A DNA stretch of 64,000 nt from Vicinamibacteria bacterium (GCA_965246965.1 CBDFGD010000002.1:1612890-1676889), one strand, 5' to 3'; positions 2,077-47,274 are shown, numbered from the stretch's first letter. Made by a program: numbers and translations. The notes: generated by a model from the sequence alone, not told the origin.

Positions 2077-2240
2077 CTCGTCACGAGAGAGGGAGGTCGC
2101 GCCAGGCTCGCGCGCGGCCCTGGTCAGCTCGGCCTGCAAGCGTGTCGCGCGAGGGAGGGGCGCGGCGGCCGTTTGGAGCTTTCGTGCGGCGCCGGCATGG
2201 CGAGAGTGTAGCATTGGGCCGTTTTTCGATAGGAGAACCC

Positions 2241-12445: not shown

Positions 12446-12628
12446 CCCCTAAAGCCTGTGTCGAGCGGGCGCTGGCCCAGCCGTTCTCCCGTGTTGGCGG
12501 GCGGCAAGGAGAGCGCCTCCCAGAGCGTGCATTCGTGTCACCTTAAACCATGCGGAGCGCCGCGACCGGGCCGTCGAGCGGCGCATGTTACTCTGGCTCA
12601 TCGGCACTGATTCGGCGGACCTCACTTC

Positions 12629-13384: not shown

Positions 13385-13387
13385 CTC

Positions 13388-29696: not shown

Positions 29697-30166
29697 GTGC
29701 GCTGCTTTAGGTGGCTGGACGACGGGATGCTGCGCATCGAGCCACGCGTCGCCGTCGAGGGCGCCGCCTCGTACGTCACCCGGCAGCGAGGCCCGGCGTT
29801 CATCGGCCACACGGTCAACAGCTACGCACTGATCCTGGCGGGTGTCGGCGTTCAGGCGCGCTGGCTCGTGAGTCGCAGCGCCCGCATCGGGCGACGGCAG
29901 GCCGCGATCCTGATCGCGAGTGCTCTGACGACGATGTTGGTAAACCTCATCTACCTCTTCGGCCCTTCGGTGCAGAGCGCGCGATCGAGCCCGTCTACAC
30001 GACGCGCCACGACGGAACCGGACTCGGGCTGGCCATCTGCCACAAGATGGTGTCGCTCCACGGCGGGCGACTGCGTGTCGGCAACGCCGAGACAGGCGGC
30101 GGGGAGGTTCGCCTGAGCCTGCCGAGAACGCGGCCACCGGATGCCGGGGCGGCCGCAGCCCGCTGA
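29697..30166 (+). pseudogene. Histidine-kinase remnant (transmembrane segments plus a C-terminal HATPase_c G2-box fragment in two frames)
   Basis: …HDGTGLGLAICHKMVSLHGGRL… lies in one frame. Hydrophobic transmembrane sequence lies in another. There are no H-box or N-box and only about 470 bp in total. Confidence 0.4.
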
Positions 30167-30246: not shown

Positions 30247-30984
30247 ATGGGCGAGTTTTTCCAAGCGGCCTTCGCCTTCCCCACCGTGGTTCTCACGGCG
30301 CTGATGGGGCTGGTGCTCGCCTACTGGCTGGTCTTCATGATGGGGATGGCCGACCTGGACATCCTCGGCTCCGGCGACGCGATAGGCGGAGCGGGTGAAG
30401 AAGCGGCTGAGGCCGCAGTCGAGGCGGTCGCGGGGGATGGCGGCGGGGTCGATGGGCTGGACGGTGGTGAAGGCGGTTGGCTGGAGAGGCTCCGCAACGC
30501 CGGGCTGACCCAGGTCCCCATCACGCTGACGTTGAGCATCCTCATCTTCTTCTCCTGGACGCTCAGCCTGCTCGGCGTCCGGCTGCTCCAGCGCTTCGGC
30601 ATCGCCGCGGAGAGTGCCGACGGACCGGGGCCCGTGTGGGCGTCGGTCATTCTCGTGGCGGCTCTGTTCGGCGGCGCGCTGGCCACCCTCGCCTCGCTGA
30701 ACCCGCTGCGCCCGCTGTTCGTGCGCCACGACGCGCCTTCGCGCGCCAGCTTCGTCGGCACCGAGTGCACGATCTTCTCCCAGAGAGTCGACGCCAGCTT
30801 CGGCCTCGCCGAGATCGAGGACGGCGGCGCCGGATTGCGTGTCGACGTCCGCTGCCTCGAGGCGACCCTGAAACGCGGCGACAAGGCGCGAGTCGTCCGC
30901 TGCGACGAAGACGTCGAGGTCTTCTTCGTCCGCGCGCTCGAGGCCGCATCGAACGAGTCCCCCTCAACACCAACAAACAAGTGA
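30247..30984 (+). CDS. YqiJ-like inner-membrane protein with NfeD-type C-terminal OB-fold
   Basis: Two transmembrane hairpins separated by a Gly/Asp/Ala-rich loop, then a C-terminal beta-rich domain. Position immediately upstream of a flotillin gene matches the yqiJ-yqiK/nfeD-floT arrangement. Confidence 0.55.
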   Translation: MGEFFQAAFAFPTVVLTALMGLVLAYWLVFMMGMADLDILGSGDAIGGAGEEAAEAAVEAVAGDGGGVDGLDGGEGGWLERLRNAGLTQVPITLTLSILIFFSWTLSLLGVRLLQRFGIAAESADGPGPVWASVILVAALFGGALATLASLNPLRPLFVRHDAPSRASFVGTECTIFSQRVDASFGLAEIEDGGAGLRVDVRCLEATLKRGDKARVVRCDEDVEVFFVRALEAASNESPSTPTNK

Positions 30985-30991
30985 GGTCACC

Positions 30992-33010
30992 ATGTCGGGA
31001 TTGATACTAGGTCCGATCTTCGCCGGCGCGATCATCCTGCTCGGCCTGCTCGGCAGCCTGGCTCGCTTCTACAAGAAGGTCGAGCAGGGCAAGGCGCTCG
31101 TCGTCAACCGGCTGCGCCCCGACCAGCTGGACGTGACCTTCACGGGCACCTACGTCCTGCCGATCATCCACAAAGCCGAGCTGATGGACATCTCGGTCAA
31201 GACGCTCGAGATCGATCGCCGGGCCGAAGACGGCCTGATCTGCCAGGACAACATCCGTGCCGACATCAAGGTGACGTTCTTCGTCCGCGTCAACAAATCG
31301 AAGAACGACGTGATCAAGGTCGCCCAGTCGATCGGCTGCAAGCGGGCGTCGGACAAGGTGACGCTCGACGAGCTGTTCAGCGCCAAGTTCTCCGAGGCGC
31401 TCAAGACGGTCGGCAAGCAGCTCGACTTCGTCGACCTCTACACCAAGCGCGAGGAGTTCCGCGACCAGATCATCGGCGTCATCGGCCGCGACCTGAACGG
31501 CTACTTCCTCGAGGATTGCGCGATCGACTACCTGGAGCAGACGCCGCTCAAGGCTCTCGACCCGAACAACATCCTCGACGCCCAGGGGATCCACAAGATC
31601 ACCCAGCTGACCGCCTCCGAGCACGTCTCTACGAACGAGTGGCAGAACGACGAGCAGAAGAAGATCCGCAAGCAGGACGTCGAGGCGACCGAGGCGATCC
31701 TCGAGCTGAATCGTCAGCAGGCGGACGCCGAGGCCAAGCAGCAGCGCGAGATCCAGAGCGTCCGCGCCCGCGAGGAGGCCGAGACCCGCAAGATCCAGTC
31801 CGAGGAGCGGCTCAAGGCCGAGAACGCCCGCATCAAGGCCGACGAGGAGATCGCGATCAACGAGGAGAACATGCGCCGCCAGGTCGAGGTCGCGCAGAAG
31901 AACCGCGAGCGCGTCATCGGCGTCGAAACCGAGCGTGTCGAGAAGGACCGGCACCTGGAGCAGATCTCGCGCGAACGCGAGACGGAGCTGCAGACCATAG
32001 AGAAGGATAAGGAGGTCGAAAAGGAGAAGCGCGAGATCGCCAACGTGATCCGCGAGCGCATCGCCGTCGAGAAGACCGTCGCCGAGCAGGAGGAGGCGAT
32101 CAAGCGCGTGCGCGTCGTGGAGGAGGCCGAGCGCCTCAGGGAGGCGGCGGTCATCACGGCATCAGCGGAGGCCGAGGAGCTGCTGATCAAGGACATCAAG
32201 GCCGCCGAGGCGGCCGAGAAGGCGGCCAAACACCGGGCGCAGGAGCAGATCACGCTCGCCGATGCCGATCTCGAGGCGTCGGACCGGACCGCTCGCGCCA
32301 AGATCCGCCTCGCCGAAGGCGTGCAGGCCGAGGAGGCGGCGAGCGGTCTCGCCACTGTGAAGGTCAAGGAAGCCGACGCGATCGCCGTCGAGAAGCTGGG
32401 CCGCGCCGAGGCGATTGTCACGCGCGACAAGGGCGACGCCGAGGCCGAGGTGATCCGCAAGACGGGCCTCTCCGAGGCGGAGGCACTGCGCGAGAAGCTG
32501 CTCGGCGAAGCCGCGGGTCTGACCGAAAAGGCCACCGCGATGAAGGAGTTCGACGACGCTACCCGGGAGCACGAGGAGTTCCGCCTCGATATCGAGAACA
32601 AGCGAGTGCTGACGCTGGAAGAGATCCAGGCCCGCAAGGAGGTCGCCGAGGCGACGGCGAAGGTCCTCGCCACGGCGCTCAAGGAGGCCCGCATCGACAT
32701 CGTCGGCGGCGAGAGCATGTTCGTCGATCGCCTCGTCAGCGCGATCTCGATGGGCAAGGCGGCCGACGGCTTCGTGGATCGTTCCGACAAGACCCAGGCC
32801 CTGCTCGGGGAGTACCTCGACGGGCGCACGAGCCTGCCCAGCGAGGTGAAGGGAGCGCTCGAGGCCGTTGCCGCGAGCAGCGCCAGGGGCGTCACCCTCG
32901 GCGCGCTGCTCGGCAAGCTCGCCGAGCAGACCAGTGGACGCGACAAGACCGCGCTGCGCTCTCTGCTCGACAAGGTCAAGGAGCTCAAGCTGGACACACT
33001 CGGGACCTAG
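30992..33010 (+). CDS. Flotillin-family SPFH/band-7 protein (YqiK-like) with long coiled-coil
   Basis: N-terminal transmembrane helix, an SPFH domain and an extended E/A/K/R-rich coiled-coil with Ala-Glu-Ala repeats. 672 aa. Confidence 0.8.
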   Translation: MSGLILGPIFAGAIILLGLLGSLARFYKKVEQGKALVVNRLRPDQLDVTFTGTYVLPIIHKAELMDISVKTLEIDRRAEDGLICQDNIRADIKVTFFVRVNKSKNDVIKVAQSIGCKRASDKVTLDELFSAKFSEALKTVGKQLDFVDLYTKREEFRDQIIGVIGRDLNGYFLEDCAIDYLEQTPLKALDPNNILDAQGIHKITQLTASEHVSTNEWQNDEQKKIRKQDVEATEAILELNRQQADAEAKQQREIQSVRAREEAETRKIQSEERLKAENARIKADEEIAINEENMRRQVEVAQKNRERVIGVETERVEKDRHLEQISRERETELQTIEKDKEVEKEKREIANVIRERIAVEKTVAEQEEAIKRVRVVEEAERLREAAVITASAEAEELLIKDIKAAEAAEKAAKHRAQEQITLADADLEASDRTARAKIRLAEGVQAEEAASGLATVKVKEADAIAVEKLGRAEAIVTRDKGDAEAEVIRKTGLSEAEALREKLLGEAAGLTEKATAMKEFDDATREHEEFRLDIENKRVLTLEEIQARKEVAEATAKVLATALKEARIDIVGGESMFVDRLVSAISMGKAADGFVDRSDKTQALLGEYLDGRTSLPSEVKGALEAVAASSARGVTLGALLGKLAEQTSGRDKTALRSLLDKVKELKLDTLGT

Positions 33011-33034
33011 CCGCTCCTCCGCGAGAGCCATCGA

Positions 33035-36000
33035 GTGGCGGATCAAGAGCAGACCGAGCCGCAAGCGAGCCCGGAGATCGAACGCGGGGCCTACGAGGTC
33101 ATCCGCGAGCGACTCGTCGCGCGTGCGAAGGAGCTTCAGCAGAAGACGGACTCCCTCAACGAGCGCCGCGTCGAGCTGTTTGGTCGCACGGAGTTCGAGC
33201 TGCTCGGGACGGAGCGCCTGCGCACGGCGAACAACTGTGTGCCGCGGGACGTGGTGCAGGTGGGGGGTCGCCTGCTGTTCGGCTACAACGTGCACATCGG
33301 CCTGCGCACGGAGACGCGCGTGGACGACGTCTTCTCATTGCACCGCTTCGAGGCGGAGGAGAACGGCTTTCGCTTCGAGGAGATCCAGCAGGGACCGGAG
33401 CGAGCGTTCCTCGACGACGAGGCGTTCGTCCGGGACTTCAAAGAGCTGTACCAGTACTACAAGTCGGCGAGGCTGCTGCAGCTGCGCCAGCTCGAGACGA
33501 AGCTGCTCGCCGCGTTCCAGATCGGCGCCCAGCTCAGCGACATCAAAGTGTTCCGTTGGGACGTCGATGGGGATGGGCTCGCCAGCTACCGCGACAACCG
33601 CGGCGAGCGCGACCACGCCTTCCCCGCCCCCCACGACTTCGAGTGGACCCAGACGACCCGCGAGAACCACGTCCAGGGTCGCTTCCCACACGTCTCGATC
33701 CTCGACGAGGTCTTCGTCGAGACCGTCGGCGGCGACCTCACGATCAAGATCGAGAACAACACCGATGCTGGCCTCGGAATATATGCCGAGCCGGTCGAGG
33801 ACGAGCGCCAGTCTCTCGATGACGCCGAGATCCACTACGCCAAGGTCGGCCCCCTCATCATTATTAAGGTGCTTCCCTACCGGGAGCGCGAGTTCCGCTA
33901 CTTCGTCTTCAACACGCTGACACACGGCGTCGAACGGATCGACGCGATCGGCCAGGCGTGTCTCCAACTCCCCGAGGATCATGGCCTCGTCTTCCCCGGC
34001 GGCTACTACCTGCGCTCGGGCCACAAGAAGCTCTTCGACGGCGACTGGACCAGCCTCGAGTTCCAGCGGCAGGTCCGGGCGCCGAACGGCGAGGACGTGC
34101 TCTACGTGTTCCACGAGCGCGCTGAGGGGCGCTCCGTCCTGCTCCCCTACAACCTGATCCGCAAGGAGGTCCGCAACCCCGTCCCTTGTCACGGCTTCAG
34201 TCGCTTCGCCGACGGGCGCATGGTCGTGCTGCGCGCGCAATCGGAAGAGCCGACGCGGGTTCACCCGATGCAGACGTGGCAGACGCCATTCTGCAGCGAG
34301 GAGCACGCGGCCGAGGCACCGGAGGTGGAAGGCGACCTCGGCAAGATCGGCAACACCGAGCTGGTGCGCGGGATCTCCGAAGCTCTCAGCCTCGTGCGCA
34401 TGACGAATGACGTCGAGCCGACGCGCGAGGTCTACGAGGAGCTGATCTCGACGGCACAGCGGATGCTCGACGCGTACTACTGGCTGGACTCGCCCGACGC
34501 CTCGGGCATGAACGAGAGCGTCGAGTCGATTCGCGAGACGGCCGAGAAGGTCATCGACGAGTTCGAGAAGGTCGAGGCGATCCGCCGCTCGACGCGGGGG
34601 CGCGTCGCCGAAGCCGCCGGCAACGTCCAGGAGCTGCTTCGGACTCTCGACCCTGAGGCGTGGAAGAGCGTGCCGCCCTTCGTCGACGCGCTCGTCGAGC
34701 TGCGCCGTCAGCGCGGCATGGTCATCACGCTGCGCGACCTTCGCTACGTCGACCGGGCGGCGCTCGATGGCCTCGAGGCACGCGTCGTGGAGGCGTTCGA
34801 CAAAGTGGCCGCCGGGGCGACCGACTTCCTCGCCACCGAGGAGGCTCTCCAGCCCTATCACGCCGAGATCGCCGCGCTCGAGGAGGCGAGCGAGGCCGTC
34901 GCCACCGTCCATGAGCTGCAGCCTCAGCTCGAAGGGCTGAATGACCTCGCCGGCAAGCTGGATGCGCTCTCGGAGATCGTGACCGGCATCGAGATCGACG
35001 ACGCTACGGTGCGCACGCGCATCCTCGAGGGGATCTCCGAGGTGCTGGGCGGCCTCAACCGCGCTCGCGCCGTCGTCGAGGGGCGCCGCAAGCAGCTGCG
35101 CTCGGGTGAGGCGGTCGCGGAGTTCGGCGTGCAGTTCCAGCTCTTCAGCCAGAGCGTCACGAGCGCCCTGGCCATGGCCGATTCGCCCGAGCGCTGCGAC
35201 GAGCAGCTCTCGCGCCTGATGCTGCAGCTCGAGGAGCTGGAAGGGCGCTTCGGCGAGTTCGACGACTTTCTGCTCCAGCTTCAGACGAAACGGGAGGAGG
35301 TCTACGAAGCCGTCAGCTCCAAGAAGCAGCTGCTGCTGGACCAGCGCCAGCGTCGTAGCGACGCCCTCGTCGAGGCCGCCGAACGGATTCTCTCGAGCAT
35401 CACGCGGCGCACGGCCGGGATCGCCAGCGACGACGAGCTGGCCGCCTACTTCGCCGGCGACGCGATGGTCGCAAAGCTGCGCGACCTGGTCGAGAAGCTG
35501 CGCGCTCTCGGCGCGGCCGTGCGAGCCGACGAGCTCGAGGCCCGGCTCAAGGCAACGCGTACAGACGCGTCCCGATCGCTGCGCGACCGCGAGGATCTCT
35601 ACGAGGAGGGAGCGGAGGTCATCCGTCTCGGCAAGCACCGCTTCGCCGTCAACACCCGCCGCCTCGACCTGACCCTCGTCCCCCGCGGCGACGGCATGTC
35701 CCTGCATCTCACCGGGACCGAGTTCTACGAGCCGTTCGACGACCCGGAGTTCGAGAAGACGAAGGATCTATGGAGCCAGGAGCTGGTGTCGGAGACGACC
35801 GACGTCTATCGCGGCGAATACCTGGCCGCCGAGATCCTCGCCGCCGCAGAGGAAGAGCGCGACGGCTTGACGTTGTCCCTGTTGCTCGAGAAGTCACACG
35901 ACAAAGCCTCCGGCGAGCTGCTCGAGCTGGTTCGCAAGTACGCTTCGGAGCGATACGACGAGGGGTACGAGCGCGGCGTTCACGACGCCGACACCGCACT

Positions 36001-38533
36001 CATCCTCCAGAAGCTGCTCGGCATCTACGCCACGGCCGACCTGCTGCGCTTCGCGCCCCGTCCCCGCGCGTTCGCCTCTCTCTTCTGGTCGCAGCTGGGC
36101 GACCGTACGCTGCGTGAGTCGTGGCAACGGCGGGCGCGTAGCCTCGGACGGATGCGCGCGAGCTTCGCGCACAGCCCGGCGATCGATGCCTTCACGCTGG
36201 AGCTGGCGCGGGCCATCGGCGCGTTCTGTGAAGAGCGTGCCATCGCGCTCGACCCGCAGGACACACGCGTGGCCGGCTCCTACCTGTTCGAGGAGTTGGG
36301 GCGCGACCCCATGCGCTTCACCGTCAGCGCGGAGGCCGTGCAGCTGCGCGACGCCTTCTTCGAGCAGCTGGCGGCCGACGGCTCGCGCCGCGAGCTCGAG
36401 CACGACATCCGAGAACTGCAGGGAGACCTGAAGAACCTCTACTCCCTGGTCGAGGCCTGGGTGGCCGCCTTCGTCGACCGAACGGAGCGGCCGGAGATCG
36501 CCGATTTCCGGCCGGCGCTCGAAGGCGCGGCGGTGCTCATCGTCGCCGACGAGCGCCTCGATCGCGACACGTCGAGCGCGTTGCCGAAGGTGTCCGTCGC
36601 CGGCCTGCTCGGCCATCACGGTCGGATCAACGATCGCAGCCTCTCGTTGCGACTGGACGAGTTCCTCTCGCGTCTCGGTCGCTTCCGACACGAGCGCGTC
36701 CCGGCATTCCGGGCTTTCCAGGAGCTGCGCCACTCGCTGCTCGAGCGCGAGCGCCGCCGCCTCCGGATCACCGAGTTCGAGCCCCGCGTGATGAGCTCGT
36801 TCGTCAGGAACCGGCTGATCGACGAGGTGTATCTACCGATCATCGGAGACAACCTCGCCAAGCAGATTGGCGCCACAGGCGAGGGCAAGCGTACCGACCT
36901 GATGGGACTGCTGCTCCTGATCTCACCGCCGGGCTATGGCAAGACCACGCTGATGGAGTACATCGCCAATCGGCTGGGCATGGTCTTCATGAAGATCAAC
37001 GGGCCGGCCCTCGGCCACTCCGTCACCTCCCTCGACCCCGCCGCCGCGGGCAACGCAACCGCGCGCCAGGAGGTCGACAAGATCAACCTCGCCCTCGAGA
37101 TGGGCAGCAACGTCCTGCTCTACCTCGACGACATTCAACACACGCACCCGGAGCTGCTGCAGAAGTTCATCTCGCTGTGCGACGCGCAGCGCCGCATCGA
37201 AGGCGTGTGGAGGGACCACACGCGCACCTACGACCTGAAGGGCAAGCGCTTCTACGTGTGCATGGCCGGCAACCCGTACACCGAGTCAGGCGAGAAGTTC
37301 CAGATCCCCGACATGCTCGCCAACCGTGCCGACGTCTACAACCTCGGCGAGGTGCTCGAGGGGAAGGACGACCTCTTCGCGTTGAGCTACCTCGAGAACG
37401 CCCTCACATCGAGCGCGACACTGGCGCCCCTGACGACGCGAGATCACGACGACATCCACAAGCTGGTCGGCCTCGCGAAGAACGACGGGACGACGCCCGA
37501 CCAGCTCTCCCACCCCTACTCGGCACCCGAGCTGGAGGAGATCGTCTCCGTGCTCCGCAAGCTGATGAGCGTTCAGGAAGTCGTGCTGACGGTGAATCGT
37601 CAGTACATCCTCTCGGCATCGCAGGAAGACGCTTTCCGCACCGAGCCCCGCTTCCAGCTTCAGGGCAGCTACCGCAACATGAACAAGCTCGCCGAGAAGA
37701 CCGTCGCGGTGATGAACGATGACGAGCTGGAAGCGCTCGTTGACGACCACTACCTCGGAGAGTCGCAGACGCTGACGACGGGCGCCGAACACAACCTGCT
37801 CAAGCTGGCCGAGCTGCGGGGCCGGATGAGCGACGAGCAGAAACTGCGCTGGACCGAGATCAAGCGCACCTACGCCCGCATCCAGACGACCGGGGGCGAC
37901 GACGATCCGGTGACGCGGGTGACGGGTCAGCTCGGCCTCATGTCCGATCGTCTGGCAGACATCGCGGCGCGCATCGCGACGGCAGTGACGGACGGAGGGA
38001 GCGCGGCGGGAAGGCAGGACCTGGGAGCATCGCTGCTCCCCGTCCTCGAGAAGATGCAGCAGGCCGGCGTGGGCACGCCGCGCGAGACGGGCCTCAGCCC
38101 CGAGGCCGTCTCGGTCATCACGACGCACCTCGGTGAGCTGTCAGCCAAGCTCGGCGCGATCGGCGCGGCGATCGACGACGCCGCCAGCCGAGCACCCGCC
38201 GCGGCCGAAGCCGAGGCGCCGCTGCAGCCCTACCTCGACAAGCTGCAAGATGCCGTCGAAGCGATGTCGGCCAAGGGCGGCACGCGCCGCGAGGTGATTC
38301 AGACCCTGCCCGGCGGCGTCGGCGACCTGCTCGACGATCTGGCTCAGCAGGTCTCGGACTCGGTGATGCCGGCCCTACGGGGCATCTCGCGTCGCATCGA
38401 GGGCTCGGACGACAAGGTCGACCGCCGCGCCCGCACCGAAATCTCCAAGGCCCTCAAGCAGCTCGACCAGCTTCGCGATCTCGCCGGTGCGCTGCGGCGG
38501 CTGGACACCCGCGGCATCGGGGAGGAAAGCTAG
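33035..38533 (+). CDS. Giant (1832-aa) AAA+/P-loop ATPase-containing protein of unknown function, co-operonic with flotillin
   Basis: Walker A …LLISPPGYGKTTL… at about 36925-36950 and Walker B …VLLYLDDIQH… at about 37117-37143. Long predicted coiled-coil/helical regions. About 450-aa N-terminal and about 350-aa C-terminal regions carry no recognisable motif. Only 25 bp separate it from the flotillin stop. Confidence 0.7.
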   Translation: MADQEQTEPQASPEIERGAYEVIRERLVARAKELQQKTDSLNERRVELFGRTEFELLGTERLRTANNCVPRDVVQVGGRLLFGYNVHIGLRTETRVDDVFSLHRFEAEENGFRFEEIQQGPERAFLDDEAFVRDFKELYQYYKSARLLQLRQLETKLLAAFQIGAQLSDIKVFRWDVDGDGLASYRDNRGERDHAFPAPHDFEWTQTTRENHVQGRFPHVSILDEVFVETVGGDLTIKIENNTDAGLGIYAEPVEDERQSLDDAEIHYAKVGPLIIIKVLPYREREFRYFVFNTLTHGVERIDAIGQACLQLPEDHGLVFPGGYYLRSGHKKLFDGDWTSLEFQRQVRAPNGEDVLYVFHERAEGRSVLLPYNLIRKEVRNPVPCHGFSRFADGRMVVLRAQSEEPTRVHPMQTWQTPFCSEEHAAEAPEVEGDLGKIGNTELVRGISEALSLVRMTNDVEPTREVYEELISTAQRMLDAYYWLDSPDASGMNESVESIRETAEKVIDEFEKVEAIRRSTRGRVAEAAGNVQELLRTLDPEAWKSVPPFVDALVELRRQRGMVITLRDLRYVDRAALDGLEARVVEAFDKVAAGATDFLATEEALQPYHAEIAALEEASEAVATVHELQPQLEGLNDLAGKLDALSEIVTGIEIDDATVRTRILEGISEVLGGLNRARAVVEGRRKQLRSGEAVAEFGVQFQLFSQSVTSALAMADSPERCDEQLSRLMLQLEELEGRFGEFDDFLLQLQTKREEVYEAVSSKKQLLLDQRQRRSDALVEAAERILSSITRRTAGIASDDELAAYFAGDAMVAKLRDLVEKLRALGAAVRADELEARLKATRTDASRSLRDREDLYEEGAEVIRLGKHRFAVNTRRLDLTLVPRGDGMSLHLTGTEFYEPFDDPEFEKTKDLWSQELVSETTDVYRGEYLAAEILAAAEEERDGLTLSLLLEKSHDKASGELLELVRKYASERYDEGYERGVHDADTALILQKLLGIYATADLLRFAPRPRAFASLFWSQLGDRTLRESWQRRARSLGRMRASFAHSPAIDAFTLELARAIGAFCEERAIALDPQDTRVAGSYLFEELGRDPMRFTVSAEAVQLRDAFFEQLAADGSRRELEHDIRELQGDLKNLYSLVEAWVAAFVDRTERPEIADFRPALEGAAVLIVADERLDRDTSSALPKVSVAGLLGHHGRINDRSLSLRLDEFLSRLGRFRHERVPAFRAFQELRHSLLERERRRLRITEFEPRVMSSFVRNRLIDEVYLPIIGDNLAKQIGATGEGKRTDLMGLLLLISPPGYGKTTLMEYIANRLGMVFMKINGPALGHSVTSLDPAAAGNATARQEVDKINLALEMGSNVLLYLDDIQHTHPELLQKFISLCDAQRRIEGVWRDHTRTYDLKGKRFYVCMAGNPYTESGEKFQIPDMLANRADVYNLGEVLEGKDDLFALSYLENALTSSATLAPLTTRDHDDIHKLVGLAKNDGTTPDQLSHPYSAPELEEIVSVLRKLMSVQEVVLTVNRQYILSASQEDAFRTEPRFQLQGSYRNMNKLAEKTVAVMNDDELEALVDDHYLGESQTLTTGAEHNLLKLAELRGRMSDEQKLRWTEIKRTYARIQTTGGDDDPVTRVTGQLGLMSDRLADIAARIATAVTDGGSAAGRQDLGASLLPVLEKMQQAGVGTPRETGLSPEAVSVITTHLGELSAKLGAIGAAIDDAASRAPAAAEAEAPLQPYLDKLQDAVEAMSAKGGTRREVIQTLPGGVGDLLDDLAQQVSDSVMPALRGISRRIEGSDDKVDRRARTEISKALKQLDQLRDLAGALRRLDTRGIGEES

Positions 38534-38534
38534 C
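38291..38534 (+). repeat. 244-bp direct repeat copy 1 = native 3' end (last 77 codons plus stop) of the giant gene
   Basis: Aligns base-for-base with 40791-41034 at about 93% identity. Confidence 0.85.
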
Positions 38535-38558
38535 CGCCGCAGCAGTGCCGACCGGGGA

Positions 38559-39152
38559 TCAGAAAAGGCGGCAGCTCTTCATCACCATCTTGGTGATGCC
38601 TCTACCGTCGGTCGCGCGGGAATCGGACGGGTACTCAGTCTGGCCGGCGAAGTGCAGCGCTTCGTGAATCAGGATGATTGCGGCCCGTTTGTCGGACAGC
38701 CGGGCGAAGCGCGGGCACAGACCGACTGCCGAGCTTCCCACCGTCGTGACAGCGAGGCTGCCGCGACGGCAGTGCCTTCTCCGGTGTCTGGCGCCGGCGG
38801 GGTAGTACGAGCTGCTGTTGAGCTTCGCCTCGCCATCGACGCCGAAGCTCGCGACCAACGCTCGACAGGAAGGATTGTCGCGGAGGTGCTGCAATGCAAC
38901 CGGAATCGCAGTGTCGAGCCTGCTTGCGATGCCTGGTGACAGGCCCGGGTGCAGGACGGGTCCTTGCGCCGGAGTACCACTCGTGACCGCTGGCGGGCAC
39001 GAACGGCTCTCCAGAGAAGCGCGCTCCGAGGCGCCCTTCTCGACCGCCATCGCCCCCGGTTCTCCCGAGCCGGGATCCTGTTCAGACCCATAGACGACGG
39101 AAGCGACGATGACCGTCGTGAAGACGAGCGTCGAAGGACGATACGCCGACAT
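38559..39152 (-). CDS. Small secreted/membrane-anchored HExxH protein (putative zinc metallopeptidase)
   Basis: N-terminal hydrophobic segment and an ILIHEALHFAG motif near the C-terminus. 197 aa. Located inside the cassette bounded by the 244-bp repeats. Confidence 0.4.
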   Translation of the reverse strand: MSAYRPSTLVFTTVIVASVVYGSEQDPGSGEPGAMAVEKGASERASLESRSCPPAVTSGTPAQGPVLHPGLSPGIASRLDTAIPVALQHLRDNPSCRALVASFGVDGEAKLNSSSYYPAGARHRRRHCRRGSLAVTTVGSSAVGLCPRFARLSDKRAAIILIHEALHFAGQTEYPSDSRATDGRGITKMVMKSCRLF

Positions 39153-39574
39153 GCGAACACCCGAATCGCCCCCCGCGGCACGTCCACTCTCGCGTTCAAG
39201 CTCTCCGACTCGAACACGCCCTCTTGCTTAGTTAGTCACTTGGACGTCGGCGCGCGGGGTAAGGTTCGCGCGAAGTGCCGTTCACTTTCATTCTGCATGT
39301 TTTGCCACTTCGATAGTTCAAGCCCTCACACGAGTGCATGAGGATTGAACCGCAGATGCTCAATCTTTGAAACTAGTTGGCCATCGCCGAACGCAATCGT
39401 TCGCGGCCACGATCACGCAGATCAAACCATTCAATGAGTGGAACAACTCGGACGACACGGATGGTGAGACCGCGATCTCAGCGATGGCGCGCCTGACATC
39501 AGTGAGTGCGACGTCCAGGATCGCTGCCGCGGCGATGGAGACTACCGCGCCTCCCGACCAGCCCGATCACGCCG

Positions 39575-39778
39575 TCAGAAGATGGCGCCGACCTTCACGC
39601 GAACCCAGCGGACGTTCCTGTCCTGAAGGCAGTAGCAGGTGGCGGGCCCCTGGATCTCCCCGTCGATCCAACCGACCTCTTTCAGTACCTTGAGCTGCTG
39701 AGAGACGGTCGCCTGCGCTATGGCCCGGTGCTCGACCACATCCCGTGTGGCTGTTTCACTGCCTTCCCGCGTCAGCAC
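39575..39778 (-). pseudogene. ArsR/SmtB-family HTH regulator fragment (N-terminally truncated)
   Basis: …AIAQATVSQQLKVLKEVGWI…ATCYCL matches the ArsR recognition helix and wing. The N-terminal helices are missing. 67 codons. Confidence 0.45.
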
Positions 39779-39832
39779 GCATCGAGTAGTTGTTCGAATG
39801 GAGGAATCCGGCTGGCGGTCGCGCTCATCGCT

Positions 39833-40687
39833 GTGGCCGATCTCGCGCGGCTCGGGTTCGAGCGACGGCGCGGCTCGCCCGGCCTGATTCGGGCGGCAGC
39901 GTGGTATCTGACCGCAGCCGTGACCACTGCCCTGCTGTACCTATCTCAGGCCGGCTACGTGATGCACTATCTCGGTACCGGAAACCTGGCGGGGCGGCAC
40001 TTCCTGAAGCTGTCTGCCAGGTTCGCGTGGCAGCTGGCGGCGCGCTGGACGGTGGGCGACAACTGGGTCACCGTACCGGTTCTGCTCGCCTTTCTCGCGG
40101 GCGTCATCGCGATCCTGACTCGCCAGCGCGACGCGTACGCCCTTGCCAGGGCGCCTGACGAGCGGGGCTACCGACTGGCTCGGCTGGCCCGCCGCGAGGA
40201 GCGCCTGGAGGCCCTGTCATCTAGGCTCTCCCCGGCCGCGACGCTGCTCCGCTTCGATTTCGCCTACCAACCCGCCGGCCTGCTGATCTGGTTCGTCGCG
40301 CCGTTTCTGCCTTTCGTTGTGATTCCGTTCAGCAAGTTCTTCGATATCCGGTTCGTCATCGCCGCGCTGCCACCGTTCCTGTTGGTGAGCGCAACGGGCC
40401 TCGTCCACCTGGGACGGTGGGCGGCGGGCCTGGCTTCAACGCGCCAAGCGGACGCGAGGCGTCAGTCGTTGCTCCGTGTCGGGGTCCCAGCGCTGTTGAG
40501 CCTGGTGATCGTGTGCGCCAGCTCGCGGTCTTACATCGTGTTTCGAAGCACGGACTATCGGTGCAGCGACTTCTTCGCGCAGCCAGAACTCCTGTCCCGA
40601 AACGACGGCTTTTGCCGCGACCACATAATCCTCAACACGATCTACTCAGAGCACCGCTTCTTGCTGCGTCCGGCCCGTAACCCCTGA
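39833..40687 (+). CDS. Hypothetical polytopic membrane protein (start uncertain)
   Basis: At least 6 strongly hydrophobic helices. No confident start codon. The open frame overlaps the ArsR fragment in antisense, so the start must lie after 39778. Confidence 0.3.
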   Translation: MADLARLGFERRRGSPGLIRAAAWYLTAAVTTALLYLSQAGYVMHYLGTGNLAGRHFLKLSARFAWQLAARWTVGDNWVTVPVLLAFLAGVIAILTRQRDAYALARAPDERGYRLARLARREERLEALSSRLSPAATLLRFDFAYQPAGLLIWFVAPFLPFVVIPFSKFFDIRFVIAALPPFLLVSATGLVHLGRWAAGLASTRQADARRQSLLRVGVPALLSLVIVCASSRSYIVFRSTDYRCSDFFAQPELLSRNDGFCRDHIILNTIYSEHRFLLRPARNP

Positions 40688-40790
40688 GGAGCGACGCTCG
40701 AGCTCGTTCCCAGTGCCGACCACAACGACGTCGTGGGCGCCGTGGAACCCGGCTACAGCCGGCTCGCTCGGCTACGAATGTAGAGAGCAG

Positions 40791-41034
40791 GAGGTGATTC
40801 AGACGTTGCCGGGTGGCGTCGGCGACCTACTCGACGACCTCGCCCAGCAGGTCTCGGACTCGGTGATGCCGGCCCTGCGCGGCATCTCGCGTCGCATCGA
40901 GGGCTCGGACGACAAGGTCGACCGCCGCGCCCGCACCGAAATCTCCAAGGCGCTCAAGCAGCTCGACCAGCTTCGCGATCTCGCCGGCGCGCTGCGGCGT
41001 CTGGACACGCGAAGGATCGGCGAGGAAAGCTAGC
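40791..41034 (+). pseudogene. Orphan copy of the giant-gene 3' end (repeat copy 2), embedded in ORF 40713-41033
   Basis: About 18 nt differences from copy 1 but only 1 amino-acid difference (G to R) over 77 codons. Homology starts abruptly at GAGGTGATTCAGAC. Confidence 0.7.
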
Positions 41035-41394
41035 GGGCGAACCTCGTAGCGACTGCGTCGAGTCGAGTTGACGCCGCTACGCCGCCCGAGAATCGGGGGG
41101 CCGCTCATCTAGTTGCCGTTTCTCGAGCGGACGGTGTGGGTCGTCGGTGACGACGCCGTCATAGCGGCGGCGAGTGGGTCGTTCTACCGCGACGGCGAGC
41201 TACTGGCGCCGGAGGCGTACGGTGGACGGCTGGCCGAAGCCGAACAGCTGATGAGACTGTTCACCAGGCGTTAGCGGCAGGGGTCTCGTCGGGCGCGGCT
41301 GGCCTGCCAGCCGGCCGCGTATCGTCCTCGCGATCCCAGGAAGACATCGCTCTATCCGACTCCTCGAGGTTTTCTAAGCTTGTATCGCCGATCA

Positions 41395-42334: not shown

Positions 42335-42613
42335 GTGGTGCGCAAGCGGGAGGTCGCACTGCGGCTGCTGCGCGGGGAGTCACTCGAAGCGCTGTCTCGT
42401 GAGCTGTCCGTGGAGATGCACCGGCTGCAGCGCTGGCGTGATCAAGCCATGGCCGGGATCGACGAGTCGCTGCGGGAGCGCAATGGCGACCCGCTGAAGG
42501 TGGAGCTGGACGCGGCGGTCAAGCGGGTGGGCGAGCTCAGCATGGAGAACGAGCTGTTGCGGAAGAAGATCGGGGCGGCCCGCCCTTTGGCCTTCGGGAG
42601 GTCGCGGCGATGA
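42335..42613 (+). CDS. IS3-family transposase OrfA (HTH / leucine-zipper)
   Basis: 92-aa basic protein with an HTH-like N-terminus and a leucine-zipper-like heptad C-terminus. GTG start. Confidence 0.7.
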   Translation: MVRKREVALRLLRGESLEALSRELSVEMHRLQRWRDQAMAGIDESLRERNGDPLKVELDAAVKRVGELSMENELLRKKIGAARPLAFGRSRR

Positions 42614-43503
42614 GTGCGGCGATCTCCCCTGCGACAGGCCGGGCCTACGGGGTGGAGCGGGTGTGCCGGGTGTGGAAGCTGGCCCGCTCGAGCTACTACT
42701 CCCAGCTCGGCGAGGCGGCTCCCGAGATGGTCCGCGCTGGCCGACGTGGTCCCAAGCCCAAGGTGTCTGACGAGGAGCTGTTGCGGCTGATCCGAGAGGA
42801 CCTGGCGGCCTCGCCGTTCGTAGGAGAAGGACATCGCAAGGTCTGGGCGCGGCTCAAGGTGCTGCGCCAGGTGCGCGTGTCGCGCAAGCGGGTGCTGCGG
42901 ATCATGCGTGAGCACCACCTGCTGTCGCCGCGTCGGGTACGCCAGGGCGAGGGGCTGCTCCACGAGGGGACGATCACAACCGATGCGCCCAACCTGATGT
43001 GGGGGACGGACGGGGCGAGAGTTCTCACGGCAAAGGACGGCTGGGGCTGGATCTTCGTCGGCGTCGAGCACTTCAACAGCGAGTGCGTCGGCTACCACGT
43101 GTGCAAGAAGGGGACGCGCTACGAGGCCCTCCAGCCCATCGCCATGGGGCTGACGCAGCTCTTCGGCTCGGTCGAGGCGGGTGTGGCTCGTGGCCTCGAG
43201 CTGCGCATGGACCACGGGACGCAGTACCTCTCGGACCACTTCCTCAACCAGCTGCGTTTCTGGGGCATCACGCCCAGCTTCGCCTTCGTCGAACAGCCGC
43301 AGACCAACGGAGTGGCCGAGCGTTTCATCCGGACTCTCAAGGAACAGATCATTCATGGCCGCGTCTTCCACACCCTCGAGGAGGTGCGCCAGGCCGTGGC
43401 TGCCTTCGTCAAGCGCTACAACCAGCAGTGGCGCGTCGAGAAGCTGGGATTCCTCACCCCGCGCGAGGCCCGCGACCAGCACGGCCAGGGAAAGGCCGCG
43501 TGA
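42610..43503 (+). CDS. IS3-family transposase OrfB (rve integrase core, DDE)
   Basis: Integrase-core motifs (…WGTD…, …HGTQY…, …NGVAERF…). -1 frame relative to orfA with a 4-nt overlap. Confidence 0.8.
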   Translation: MSAAISPATGRAYGVERVCRVWKLARSSYYSQLGEAAPEMVRAGRRGPKPKVSDEELLRLIREDLAASPFVGEGHRKVWARLKVLRQVRVSRKRVLRIMREHHLLSPRRVRQGEGLLHEGTITTDAPNLMWGTDGARVLTAKDGWGWIFVGVEHFNSECVGYHVCKKGTRYEALQPIAMGLTQLFGSVEAGVARGLELRMDHGTQYLSDHFLNQLRFWGITPSFAFVEQPQTNGVAERFIRTLKEQIIHGRVFHTLEEVRQAVAAFVKRYNQQWRVEKLGFLTPREARDQHGQGKAA

Positions 43504-45750: not shown

Positions 45751-47273
45751 GCTAGGAGTCTGCGCGGCAGTAGTTCAGCCCGGGTGTGTCATCGTGCCTT
45801 GTGACCCGAGAGATCATCTTGCCTGGGCTAAACGGCAGTAGTGGGCTCGCGGACGAGTGCTCGCGAGGGAGGACGGGCGGATCCAAGGCCGGGTGGTGGT
45901 CATACCCAGACCATCTTCCGATTGAGTCTCCTGAGGTTGAGCGCCAAGCAAACGAGATTCCACTCGGCGCTGGTTTTCTCAAGCCCTCGAAGGCTGAAGG
46001 ATTGGAAACCAAGCACAGCCTTGATCCATCCGAATGGCGGTTCGCCGAGTTTGCGCCGCTTGTACCACTTGCGACCACGTTTCGTCTTGAGCTTCGCCTT
46101 CATGCGGAGCGTCGCTTCGAGCTTCGAATTCGACGTTGGTGGAGAGTCTTTCTTTTCTCTCCCCAGAGCCACGAAACCGTCGATTCCGGTACGTTCCAAG
46201 TGCAGTAGGTTCTTTTCGGAACGGTAGCCGGCATCGGCCAGGGCACGCTTGGGCTTCTCACCGGTGTTGGCTTGAGCCGTTTTCAGCATCGGCTCGAGCT
46301 GACCGACATCCGCAGCGTTGTTGGTCAACCCGGTCGCAACGATCAGCTGCGATTTCTCGTCGACGGCGGCTTGGGCATTGAAGCACTGCTGGTAGCCACT
46401 CGAATCCTTCATGATGCGGCTTTCGGGATCGGTGAAGTTGTCCTGCTTCTTGTCCGGAGGTACGCCAAATCTCCTTTTGAACTTTGGCCCTCGCTTCGAT
46501 TCCTTGTCATCCCCTGGCCGACGTCCGGCCTGCTGATCTTCTTCCTTCTGACGGGCCTCCAGACGTGCCTTCGCTGCTTGGATTTTCTTGAGCCGTGAAT
46601 CTCGGCGCGCCAGCTCTTCTGGCAGTTCGTCGCCACGAAAATCAGGACCAAACTCGACGTCTTCCGCAGCATCTTCTTGTTTCGCAAGAGCGGTGATAGC
46701 CCGAATCTCTCGACGGAGCTGTTTCTCCGTTTTCTTCATACGCTCGTAGCTCATCGCCTTGTGCTTGCTGGCATTCGCCTTGACCTTCGTTCCATCCAGA
46801 ATCAACGTCCCAAGCTTGACCAAACCCACTTCTTGAGCCAGACGCACGACTTGGACGAATACAGATCGAAACTGGGACAAATGGTCACAACGGAAATCAC
46901 TGATCGTCCGGTGTGCCGGGAAATTGCCTCCGCTCAAATAACGGTATGCGACATCCTCTTCCAGCTTCTTCGCGATCCCACGAGACGAAAACGTCCCTGT
47001 CGCATAGCCGTAGATCAGAACCTTCAGCATCATTCGAGGATCGAATCGTCGGTTCCGACGTCCATCGCCCTCGTAGCGCTCGTAGAAAGCACGCACATCC
47101 ATCGCCTCCACCGTATCCGAGATGAAAAACGAAAGATGACCCTCCGGAAGCCAGTCTCGTGGATTCGACGGAAACAAACTCGATTGGTCAGGACTGTACG
47201 GACGGAAACTCGTTCCCATAACTTCAAAAACGCTCATTCACCCGATTTCGTTCCTGCCGCGCAGACTCCTAGC
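45751..47273 (-). mobile_element. IS1182-family insertion sequence, copy 1 (1523 bp)
   Basis: Perfect 17-bp terminal inverted repeats GCTAGGAGTCTGCGCGG / CCGCGCAGACTCCTAGC. Single intact transposase ORF. About 99% identical to copy 2, which lies in inverted orientation. Confidence 0.85.
45900..47237 (-). CDS. IS1182-family (DDE_Tnp_1 / DUF772) transposase, intact
   Basis: 445 aa. Conserved N-terminal block (…LIYGYATGTFSSRGIA…RYLSGG…) and DDE region. Confidence 0.85.
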   Translation of the reverse strand: MSVFEVMGTSFRPYSPDQSSLFPSNPRDWLPEGHLSFFISDTVEAMDVRAFYERYEGDGRRNRRFDPRMMLKVLIYGYATGTFSSRGIAKKLEEDVAYRYLSGGNFPAHRTISDFRCDHLSQFRSVFVQVVRLAQEVGLVKLGTLILDGTKVKANASKHKAMSYERMKKTEKQLRREIRAITALAKQEDAAEDVEFGPDFRGDELPEELARRDSRLKKIQAAKARLEARQKEEDQQAGRRPGDDKESKRGPKFKRRFGVPPDKKQDNFTDPESRIMKDSSGYQQCFNAQAAVDEKSQLIVATGLTNNAADVGQLEPMLKTAQANTGEKPKRALADAGYRSEKNLLHLERTGIDGFVALGREKKDSPPTSNSKLEATLRMKAKLKTKRGRKWYKRRKLGEPPFGWIKAVLGFQSFSLRGLEKTSAEWNLVCLALNLRRLNRKMVWV

Positions 47274-47274
47274 G

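Follow-up and report, generated by a model that had tools for sequence, protein, structure and literature searches.

The 64,000-nucleotide stretch of DNA analysed here (the window) contains a real operon of three genes, encoding a YqiJ-like membrane protein, a flotillin and a giant soluble ATPase. On balance, we think it somewhat more likely than not that the three form a conserved bacterial envelope-maintenance module, in which the ATPase would be a flotillin-anchored, ATP-driven remodeller of sub-membrane assemblies. The genes are as follows.

30247-30984, plus strand: gene 1, YqiJ/YuaF (NfeD2)-like membrane protein, 245 amino acids, ATG start (open reading frame and translation)
30992-33010, plus strand: gene 2, flotillin of the YqiK family (SPFH2), 672 amino acids, ATG start (open reading frame, BLASTP)
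33035-38533, plus strand: gene 3, soluble beta-propeller/coiled-coil/AAA+ ATPase, 1832 amino acids, GTG start (open reading frame, Pfam)

The open reading frames, all on the plus strand, lie exactly where the initial annotation had placed three co-directional genes. The gaps between them are short, as it had said, and measure 7 nt (genes 1 and 2) and 24 nt (genes 2 and 3); its values of 8 and 25 bp were start-minus-end differences. A GAGG Shine-Dalgarno sequence overlaps the gene 1 stop codon. The exact sequences of all three proteins are present as unnamed gene calls in public collections.

The unit of three genes proposed by the initial annotation is genuine, and the association of the giant ATPase with the flotillin and the NfeD-like protein is strongly conserved. 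More than 6,367 homologs of gene 3 were found, and 71 loci were informative, having 3 kb or more of sequence upstream of the ATPase gene. The flotillin gene lies directly upstream of the ATPase gene in 63 of the 71 (median gap ~20 nt) and all three genes occur in the same order in 61, in loci that span Myxococcota, Acidobacteriota, Actinomycetota, Planctomycetota, Eremiobacterota and Gammaproteobacteria (at least six phyla). Across phyla the ATPase retains 47-56% identity over ~1800 residues and the flotillin 46-67%, and the layout persists where members are only 31-36% identical. No fourth gene family recurs beside the trio among the compared loci; TelA and TerD, both envelope-stress genes, adjoin some divergent copies. 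Pairwise distances of the three proteins correlate (r = 0.80-0.89), as would also be expected from shared vertical descent.

Since Pfam detected neither NfeD in gene 1 nor Band_7 in gene 2, the identity of these genes was established through other comparisons. The gene 1 product has three transmembrane-like segments by hydropathy (residues ~4-40, 85-114 and 127-154), an acidic loop rich in Gly and Asp, and a soluble, beta-rich domain at the C-terminus (~160-230), which forms a conserved block in the alignment and aligns to the C-terminus of YqiJ. Pairwise BLASTP gave no match to YqiJ, and a profile of 25 orthologs matched the E. coli protein in hhalign with a probability of 90.9% (E 1.2e-6) over 127 columns spanning the transmembrane segments and the C-terminal domain. 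The same profile matches (E 1e-39) the positional ortholog on a Hymenobacter plasmid, which is annotated as DUF1449, the family of YqiJ. It did not match solved NfeD structures, and an OB-fold is hinted at weakly by Pfam in a divergent ortholog. Judged by these comparisons, gene 1 encodes a three-transmembrane protein of the YqiJ/YuaF type.

The gene 2 product is, by sequence, a membrane-anchored Band-7, coiled-coil and flotillin protein. A hydrophobic N-terminal anchor (residues 1-27, from hydropathy) is followed by the SPFH region, a long coiled coil rich in Glu, Ala and Lys, and a flotillin region at the C-terminus. It is 27% identical to E. coli YqiK over 417 amino acids (BLASTP E 8e-36) and matches NCBIfam FloT weakly (E 6.5e-6); the ortholog at locus L083 carries a precomputed Band_7 match, and RefSeq names orthologs "SPFH domain-containing protein" or "flotillin family protein". 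In E. coli yqiJ-yqiK and B. subtilis yuaF-floT, the NfeD2-SPFH2 class (Hinderhofer et al. 2009, PMC2636767), an NfeD-like gene likewise stands immediately upstream of the flotillin gene, and by sequence genes 1 and 2 belong to this class. However, the E. coli operon stops after yqiK and has no ATPase gene, and the flotillin of the window is ~120 amino acids longer than YqiK and too divergent for Pfam Band_7.

The gene 3 product has no transmembrane-like window (maximum Kyte-Doolittle value 1.17). Its segments, including those seen in AF2 models with mean pLDDT of 83 and 77, are as follows.

33131-34480, plus strand: DUF3686 region, residues 33-482 (Pfam E 1.2e-209 over the whole profile)
34292-35599, plus strand: antiparallel helical bundles and coiled coils, residues ~420-855 (AF2 secondary structure)
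34841-35095, plus strand: DUF7902, residues 603-687 (Pfam E 6.7e-28)
35735-36763, plus strand: conserved compact helical domain upstream of the ATPase, residues ~901-1243
36902-37894, plus strand: AAA+ module, residues ~1290-1620
36923-36949, plus strand: Walker A SPPGYGKTT, residues 1297-1305, with K1303
37118-37141, plus strand: Walker B LYLDDIQH, residues 1362-1369, with D1365-D1366
37982-38533, plus strand: variable Ala/Glu/Leu-rich C-terminal tail, residues ~1650-1832

The N-terminal ~450 residues, described earlier as lacking any motif, thus hold DUF3686, matched over its whole profile. DUF3686 occurs almost exclusively at the N-terminus of proteins of 1600-2000 amino acids (775 clusters at 50% identity). 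In the AF2 model (pLDDT mostly 85-95 in this region) a helix (residues 19-49) precedes an all-beta domain (~55-416), which is a beta-propeller and, from its strand pattern, probably seven-bladed. Foldseek returned beta-propellers and propeller-plus-helical proteins with low TM-scores, and the match therefore indicates fold class only. The compact helical domain at ~901-1243 has no structural or sequence match outside the gene 3 family. The ~350 C-terminal residues had likewise been described as devoid of motifs, yet only the last ~200 are unconserved, and ~1450-1620 form a conserved AAA+ lid and helical region. In the tail, column conservation is 6-14%; it is absent or unalignable in many homologs, most tblastn matches to gene 3 end at residue ~1643-1690, and it is predicted to be helical with low pLDDT, matching only designed coiled coils among PDB sequences.

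Both the Walker A and the Walker B motif reported earlier are present, and the P-loop residues are conserved among homologs. A beta-hairpin of the pre-sensor-1 type lies between helix 3 and strand 4 (~1387-1400), N1413 is assigned as sensor 1 and R1431 as the arginine finger, and the helical lid contains R1547 as a sensor-2 candidate. In the AF2 models, the stretch immediately ahead of Walker A and part of the core have low confidence. The ATPase site is intact: its catalytic residues do not vary even among homologs of only 33% identity. The Walker B motif had been called atypical, but a defect is not supported, since the "DD" is invariant throughout the family and therefore a family trait; with DD in place of DE, a slow ATPase or a nucleotide-dependent switch instead of a motor is possible. 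Many unfoldases have an aromatic pore loop between strand 2 and helix 2. Neither the sequence nor the family consensus shows a conserved aromatic residue in this loop, which makes classical polypeptide threading uncertain.

The nearest AAA+ folds belong to protein-remodelling machines: MoxR-type NorQ/CbbQ, ClpA/ClpB/Skd3, Lon, midasin and dynein. Identity to MoxR (NorQ/CbbQ) and to members of the HCLR clade (ClpA/ClpB/Skd3/Lon) is only ~15%, and unlike these, gene 3 has a single AAA+ module inside a multidomain protein of 1800 amino acids and a DD Walker B. MoxR proteins are ~300-residue AAA+ ATPases with a helix-2 insert and usually a VWA-domain partner; gene 3 shows no evident insert in helix 2, and a VWA partner is lacking. 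The AAA+ module is assignable to neither clade, and the gene 3 ATPase falls into no functionally characterised family.

NCBI calls members of this family "DNA repair ATPase" or "AAA family ATPase". This and the Pfam name, together with weak local similarity to the P-loop region of RuvB, are what speak for a DNA repair enzyme acting on DNA, SMC/Rad50/SbcC-like or RuvB-like, a reading to which we give hardly any credence. Enzymes of the SMC/Rad50/SbcC type have an ABC head, with an N-terminal Walker A, a C-terminal Walker B and signature, and a long coiled coil between them. In gene 3, Walker A and Walker B are adjacent in one AAA+ fold, and neither Pfam, NCBIfam nor PDB yielded an SMC or Rad50 match. 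Gene 3 does not answer to RuvB either, with its ~330 amino acids, its action with RuvA and its family cut-off score. As a name, "DNA repair ATPase" is unsupported and probably mistaken.

The initial annotation could name no earlier description of the three-gene arrangement. In fact the arrangement is not new: the same operon, comprising YqiJ/YuaF, Band-7/flotillin and a β-propeller-coiled-coil-AAA+ protein, was linked to the PspA membrane-stress system by Ravi et al. 2024 (PMC11237479, preprint 2020) in one paragraph of comparative genomics. These authors found it often preceded by CesT/Tir-PspA, noted PspA-less "abbreviated" forms, list a Dokdonia entry with the same gene order and linked PspA (Table S3), and proposed ATP-dependent sub-membrane assembly and dynamics for the gene set. 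RefSeq, too, routinely annotates a "flotillin family protein" beside a "DNA repair ATPase". The window shares with the published operon the three protein types, gene order, membrane topology and the domain order of the ATPase (helix, beta-propeller, helical bundles, AAA+), and differs in lacking CesT/Tir, PspA and the phospholipase D of some Proteobacteria. A PspA profile, jackhmmer and Pfam all failed to find PspA in the 64-kb window, which therefore does not hold the full version with adjacent CesT/Tir and PspA/IM30; by gene content the locus is the abbreviated form.

Elsewhere PspA adjacency recurs. PspA lies directly upstream and co-directional at L087, at L069 and L077 (Lysobacteraceae), and on the Hymenobacter plasmid, where a Tir-type chaperone accompanies it; on pQBR103 it is the first gene of a yjfI/yjfJ-like cluster, several genes long and co-directional, that runs into the module. 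In all, PspA is present at L069, L077, L087, L089 and L090, and the sources with PspA directly upstream are Lysobacteraceae, Hymenobacter, pQBR103 and a low-GC metagenomic contig. The PspA-containing operons of L087, the Hymenobacter plasmid and pQBR103 carry DUF3686 ATPases together with clear homologs of genes 1 and 2 of the window, which confirms the family identity. Popp et al. 2022 also describe, for Acidobacteriota and Bacteroidota, PspA genes adjoining those of Band7/Flot and NfeD. Recruitment of PspA to the membrane by an SPFH protein, YdjI, is reported from B. subtilis. With PspA undetectable in the window and in 78 of the 80 closest loci, this clade has only an indirect link to PspA, which the module may not need in order to work.

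No experimental characterisation of any member of the ATPase family was found in the literature searched, and from the features above we infer how the three proteins would associate, and in what oligomeric state, on what substrate and in what role they would act. With its hydrophobic N-terminal segment as the anchor, the flotillin would oligomerise beneath the membrane and build a scaffold on the cytoplasmic side. Its partner within the membrane would be the YqiJ/NfeD-like protein, in contact through the C-terminal beta (OB-like) domain, as the analogy with other SPFH-NfeD pairs suggests. The single AAA+ module would mediate oligomerisation of the ATPase, probably into a hexamer, and the beta-propeller and the long helical arms would serve to dock it on the scaffold or on the scaffold's clients. 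ATP hydrolysis would then drive remodelling, assembly or disassembly of protein assemblies under the membrane, the likeliest targets being either polymers of the PspA/ESCRT-III type, with genes at other sites in the genome, or the assembly that the flotillin itself forms. Such an activity would parallel that of Vps4 on ESCRT-III (the Snf7/PspA/Vipp1 superfamily), a conceptual analogy in which an AAA+ ATPase remodels membrane-bound ESCRT-III-type polymers; PspA genes adjoin the module in several lineages.

An SPFH-family scaffold is likewise coupled functionally to an AAA+ enzyme in HflK/C-FtsH and in mitochondrial prohibitin-m-AAA protease. The module might serve membrane protein quality control as a protease-less, PspA-independent functional analogue of these, the flotillin corralling client membrane proteins and the AAA+ protein acting on them as an unfoldase or chaperone. 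We regard this as rather unlikely. In its favour, partnership between SPFH cages and AAA+ enzymes is well established, as in HflK/C-FtsH; stabilisation of unfolded proteins has been reported for S. aureus FloA-NfeD; ClpA, ClpB, Skd3 and Lon are among the closest AAA+ folds; and most loci, the window included, have no adjacent PspA. Against it, the module has neither a protease domain nor a protease partner gene, no conserved aromatic pore-loop motif is evident, and the repeated adjacency of PspA across several lineages suggests that the partner is more specific. FtsH itself is a membrane-anchored enzyme of the classical AAA clade with an M41 peptidase, whereas gene 3 has no transmembrane segment or peptidase domain and combines a pre-sensor-1 hairpin-type core with a beta-propeller; no NfeD partner has been described for HflK/C.

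The initial annotation also saw a resemblance to cargo-sensing or defence-type modules. As an anti-phage defence or conflict module, the flotillin and NfeD-like protein would form a membrane sensor and the large NTPase would carry a variable sensing tail, within mobile DNA. The tail is indeed variable, a few copies of the module are on megaplasmids, the divergent locus L085 lies beside RNA-ligase, R2K and HipA genes, and both in this genome and in its closest relative IS elements and a duplicated gene end occur in the 3' flank. We nevertheless consider defence very improbable. Searches of the three proteins against PADLOC-DB v2 gave only trivial P-loop-level matches, and the module lacks effector domains of the nuclease, protease, pore and toxin types. 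Residence in defence islands was not borne out: 3 of 113 flanking proteins match PADLOC models, all three being generic Ser/Thr kinases; the flanks are heterogeneous and mostly metabolic, the 25 flanking families listed include neither a transposase nor an integrase family, and in the window pyrD-like and pyrF-like housekeeping genes lie upstream. No relative was found on 2.9 million viral contigs, nor any consistent mobile-element or phage association across relatives, and the strong cross-phylum conservation is unlike that of fast-diversifying conflict systems.

The mobile and duplicated DNA noted earlier downstream of the genes is present.

40791-41039, plus strand: duplicate of the last 80 codons and stop codon of gene 3 (repeat search, alignment)
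42610-43503: IS3-type integrase
45900-47237: DDE transposase

The duplicate, a 249-nt copy of 38291-38539 (92% identical, one amino-acid change), lies 2.5 kb downstream of gene 3 past an intervening segment (38540-40790), and begins in frame at codon 1753, with an open reading frame there at 40713-41033. Synteny with an 87%-identical relative stops at the gene 3 stop codon. The duplicate is outside the conserved module and, like the two IS elements, is specific to this lineage.

Six-frame ORF listing and translation bore out the three co-directional genes proposed in the initial annotation, which are separated by gaps of 7 nt (genes 1 and 2) and 24 nt (genes 2 and 3):

30247-30984, + strand: gene 1, 245 amino acids
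30992-33010, + strand: gene 2, 672 amino acids
33035-38533, + strand: gene 3, 1832 amino acids, GTG start

A GAGG Shine-Dalgarno sequence overlaps the stop codon of gene 1. The exact sequences of all three proteins are present in public collections as unnamed gene calls. Scanning for promoters and terminators gave no signal exceeding shuffled expectation, and an Rfam search of the entire window returned zero matches.

Pfam searches with the products of genes 1 and 2 returned nothing, even at E = 10, and their identities were therefore established via E. coli YqiJ and YqiK. Gene 2 and YqiK, an inner membrane protein of the flotillin family, share 27% identity across 417 aligned residues (E 8e-36). 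The gene 2 product, whose one hydrophobic anchor is N-terminal, is a flotillin of the YqiK/FloT type, and its Glu/Ala/Lys coiled coil is unusually long. The gene 1 product has three transmembrane-like segments and gave no pairwise match to E. coli YqiJ. A profile of 25 orthologs aligned with YqiJ (hhalign probability 91%, E 1e-6) through both the transmembrane region and the beta-rich C-terminal domain. It also matched (E 1e-39) the protein encoded at the corresponding place on a Hymenobacter plasmid, annotated as a "DUF1449 family protein", which is the YqiJ family. On the strength of the YqiK alignment and the two profile matches, genes 1 and 2 are a divergent NfeD2-SPFH2 pair; such pairs were catalogued by Hinderhofer et al. 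2009 (PMC2636767). PDB sequence searches with the flotillin alone, the flotillin profile and the gene 1 profile yielded nothing useful.

The N-terminus of the gene 3 product had been thought free of motifs, but it contains a full-length match to the Pfam domain DUF3686 (E 1e-209). Domain matches and the elements seen in two AlphaFold2 models, built from 59-sequence alignments (mean pLDDT 83 and 77), are as follows, in residues of gene 3:

33-482: DUF3686, end to end (Pfam)
603-687: DUF7902 (Pfam)
about 1293-1420: AAA and AAA_5 (Pfam)
19-49: predicted helix (AlphaFold2)
55-416: predicted all-beta domain (AlphaFold2)
420-855: predicted long helical bundles (AlphaFold2)
about 901-1243: predicted compact helical domain, very confident (AlphaFold2)
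about 1290-1620: predicted AAA+ alpha/beta core and helical lid (AlphaFold2)
C-terminal end: predicted helical tail, low confidence (AlphaFold2)

No transmembrane-like segment was found in this protein. Its all-beta domain is predicted to be a beta-propeller: Foldseek retrieved generic propellers and propeller-plus-helix proteins at a TM of about 0.12, a match in fold class only. PDB sequence searches with the full protein and with the family profile found P-loop matches and designed coiled coils, and nothing else.

The motifs SPPGYGKTT and LYLDDIQH, quoted in the initial annotation, lie at residues 1297-1305 and 1362-1369, respectively. Conservation was assessed with 68 full-length cluster representatives, which share only 33-52% identity with the window protein (69 sequences including it). 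Residues K1303 (Walker A), D1365-D1366 (Walker B), N1413 (sensor 1), R1431 (arginine finger) and R1547 (sensor-2 candidate) are each conserved in 68-69 of the 69 sequences; judging from this alignment, the ATPase active site is intact and invariant in the family. In 68 of 69 representatives the Walker B motif reads hhhhDD instead of hhhhDE (residues 1365-1366; window positions 37127-37132), hence what had been called atypical is a family hallmark and not decay. The second aspartate may make hydrolysis slow, switch-like or regulated. Conservation is highest in the AAA+ region (73-75%), and the last approximately 200 residues are essentially unconserved (6-14%). No aromatic pore-loop motif is conserved across the family. 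The window protein is equidistant (57-58%) from relatives in Myxococcota/"Deltaproteobacteria", Acidobacteriota and Actinomycetota.

A scan of one genome per GTDB species identified at least 552 relatives of gene 3, and 80 of their loci were fetched. Where at least 3 kb of upstream sequence was available (71 loci), a co-directional flotillin gene lies directly upstream in 63, with a median gap of about 20 nt, and all three genes occur in the same order in 61, so that the linkage with SPFH and NfeD genes holds among relatives. The loci are spread over Myxococcota, Acidobacteriota, Actinomycetota, Planctomycetota, Eremiobacterota, Longimicrobium and Gammaproteobacteria. Searching 1.84 billion representatives exhaustively yielded 775 DUF3686 clusters, in which the domain is nearly always N-terminal in proteins of 1600-2000 residues. 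Even the most divergent members (31-36% identity, from low-GC genomes) keep the layout of a gene for about 210 residues, a flotillin of about 650 residues and the ATPase. Pairwise distances of the three proteins are correlated (r = 0.80-0.89), which is compatible with inheritance as a unit; shared phylogeny contributes to this correlation. A fourth conserved gene was rejected: the best cluster was present in 13 of 80 loci at scattered positions, and no family recurs.

Exceptions to the layout come mainly from Sorangium and other Polyangiaceae. Four loci (L027, L028, L039 and L058) have neither a flotillin nor a YqiJ-like gene within 10 kb of the ATPase gene, and in two others (L029 and L078) the flotillin is about 6 kb upstream. 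In the loci inspected, L027 and L029, the sequence immediately upstream of the ATPase gene holds a large ORF on the opposite strand, a DUF4215-repeat/PA14 gene in the case of L027. We rejected it as an alternative partner of the ATPase in Sorangium, where the opposite-strand DUF4215-repeat gene merely interrupts the operon. Evidently, the ATPase can be kept when uncoupled from its flotillin and YqiJ-like partners.

The initial annotation regarded the arrangement as undescribed, but Ravi et al. 2024 (mSystems 9:e00847-23, PMC11237479; preprint 2020) had already reported the operon by comparative genomics. They described operons of CesT/Tir-PspA with three further genes, one of which encodes a 3TM protein prototyped by YqiJ/YuaF, and their Table S3 gives the order YqiJ-YuaF, Band-7/flotillin and beta-propeller+coiled-coil+AAA-ATPase for Dokdonia donghaensis. 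We confirmed that this ATPase is the DUF3686 family. Independently, Popp et al. 2022 (PMC9239133) reported PspA adjoining Band7/Flot and NfeD genes in Acidobacteriota and Bacteroidota. The locus studied here is thus an instance of an arrangement already noted computationally and no new kind of system. The searched literature contained no experimental study of any family member, no papers on DUF3686, PF12458, DUF7902 or flotillin with DNA repair ATPase, and nothing relevant on pQBR103 and PspA.

The operon is recurrently fused to operons of PspA, a member of the ESCRT-III superfamily. In the divergent locus L087, PspA_IM30 precedes genes for 234 and 675 residues and the DUF3686 ATPase; its flotillin is 50% identical to that of the window, and its small protein matches gene 1 with an E of 9e-12. 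The Hymenobacter plasmid has the order Tir chaperone, PspA/IM30, DUF1449, hypothetical protein and "DNA repair ATPase". The well-studied megaplasmid pQBR103 of P. fluorescens SBW25 (NC_009444.1, 84437-97641) offers an experimental system at hand. On it, a multi-gene PspA cluster (YjfI, PspA (yjfJ), rhomboid, DUF2491, DUF350, DUF1190 and glutathionylspermidine synthase) runs co-directionally into YqiJ-like, SPFH and "DNA repair ATPase" genes; an MvaT/MvaU-family gene lies just downstream. A PspA profile also placed PspA directly upstream of the module in two Lysobacteraceae loci, L069 and L077. No PspA, CesT or TelA was detected in the window or the other 78 close loci; therefore the window carries the abbreviated, PspA-less form of the operon. 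A PspA-less form is also found on the chromosome of Proteus mirabilis.

Several low-GC divergent loci have a gene of the TelA family ("toxic anion resistance") on the downstream side of the module, at a distance of 0.1-2.4 kb and on varying strands:

L082, 11001-12221: TelA-family gene
L083/L084, 11502-12608: TelA-family gene
L085, 14176-15303: TelA-family gene

The L087 sequence ends at the ATPase gene. TelA was rejected as a module component, since it accompanies only these divergent low-GC copies, its position and strand vary, and all 80 close (high-GC) loci lack it. Near a Streptomyces plasmid copy (L093) there is a TerD gene. These neighbours may be another link to envelope stress.

The module first proposed stands as real, conserved and experimentally uncharacterised; its interpretation as a defence-type system does not. 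PADLOC searches with the module proteins gave matches at the level of the P-loop only. Of 113 genes flanking the module in 29 loci, only three matched PADLOC models, all through Ser/Thr kinase domains, and the Pfam families were heterogeneous, none occurring in more than three of the 113. No relatives were found on viral contigs, and plasmid relatives (13 of 72,556 records) are mostly on megaplasmids, chromids or mislabelled chromosomes. The flanks of L085 hold RNA-ligase, HD/KTI12/AAA_33 and R2K genes upstream (1575-4232) and an HTH_3-HipA pair downstream (12191-13811). Such a gene set resembles an RNA-repair, toxin-antitoxin or conflict neighbourhood, in a single case not seen elsewhere. Upstream of the module in the window lie pyrD-like and pyrF-like genes and a gene for a small HATPase_c protein. 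The latter (29711-30166, + strand, 151 amino acids), anti-sigma-factor-kinase-like in size, ends 80 nt before gene 1 on the same strand; it is probably unrelated to the module because it has no counterpart beside the module in other loci.

DUF3686 proteins are labelled "ATPase involved in DNA repair" in Pfam and "DNA repair ATPase" in RefSeq, which appears to have no experimental or structural basis. Identity with SMC/Rad50/SbcC proteins was rejected, as a single AAA+ fold holds Walker A and Walker B side by side, and so was identity with RuvB, where similarity spans 45 residues at 23 bits vs a cut-off of 282. Pfam found no DNA-related domain in gene 3, and its obligate partners are membrane proteins. 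The label may descend from the old SbcC COG name; this COG is often matched by coiled-coil proteins. It is probably a misleading name that is spreading through RefSeq. Gene context and fold instead suggest protein remodelling in association with the membrane.

The three genes are strictly co-conserved; their products are a YqiJ-like protein embedded in the membrane, a flotillin anchored to it and a soluble AAA+ protein of several domains. We lean towards a model, essentially the hypothesis of Ravi et al., in which the ATPase remodels sub-membrane assemblies on a flotillin/YqiJ-like scaffold. The flotillin and the YqiJ-like protein would form a cytoplasm-facing scaffold analogous to the QmcA-YbbJ cage and other SPFH assemblies. 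The ATPase would oligomerise via its AAA+ module, dock by its propeller and helical arms, and spend ATP on assembling, remodelling or dismantling sub-membrane assemblies. Where PspA is linked, the targets would be PspA polymers; in abbreviated systems, the target may be the flotillin assembly itself. The main rival is a quality-control unfoldase without a protease that would act, like HflK/C-FtsH, on clients corralled by the flotillin; this seems unlikely. Two caveats apply to the mechanism: the family lacks a conserved aromatic pore-loop motif, and hydrolysis may be slow and switch-like given the DD Walker B.

It is conceivable, if rather doubtful, that gene 3 encodes a mechano-enzyme dedicated to bacterial flotillin assemblies and independent of PspA. 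As a hexameric ring with six long, propeller-tipped helical arms, it would dock on flotillin domes and build, reshape or dismantle them at the expense of ATP. Such an enzyme would be a prokaryotic counterpart of coat-remodelling machines, e.g. Vps4 on ESCRT-III. If so, it would be the first energy-consuming partner dedicated to bacterial flotillins and would offer a direct way to learn what flotillin platforms do. The function of bacterial flotillins is still debated, and a conserved, dedicated 1,800-aa ATPase partner, present in at least 552 species representatives and about 775 clusters from Myxococcota to Proteus mirabilis and pQBR103, is a concrete experimental target for this question.

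The mobile and duplicated DNA that the initial annotation associated with the module is genuine downstream of it in the window's lineage, but is not general among the relatives' loci. The last 80 codons and stop of gene 3 (38291-38539) are duplicated 2.5 kb downstream (40791-41039) at 92% identity; the duplicate begins in frame at codon 1753 and differs by one amino-acid change, all other differences being synonymous. It looks as if an insertion carried or regenerated the 3' end of gene 3, with the old end surviving as a remnant ORF. The intervening segment (38540-40790) and its surroundings contain the following features:

38559-39152, - strand: 197-aa ORF with a HEALH (HExxH) motif, hydrophobic N-terminus and weak Aspzincin_M35 match
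39575-39778, - strand: 67-aa ArsR-type HTH fragment
39506-40687, + strand: 393-aa ORF, multi-transmembrane in appearance
40713-41033: putative remnant ORF with the old gene end
42610-43503, + strand: IS element with IS3-type rve integrase
45900-47237, - strand: IS element with DDE_Tnp_1/DUF772 transposase

Both IS elements lie less than 9 kb downstream of the module, and GC content dips to 0.576 around the DDE_Tnp_1/DUF772 transposase (46001-48000) vs about 0.67. The instability of the 3' flank is real in this lineage and local, and does not characterise the module in genomes at large. In L088, the closest relative (87% identical), synteny stops exactly at the ATPase stop codon, and an IS91/Y2 transposase follows directly.
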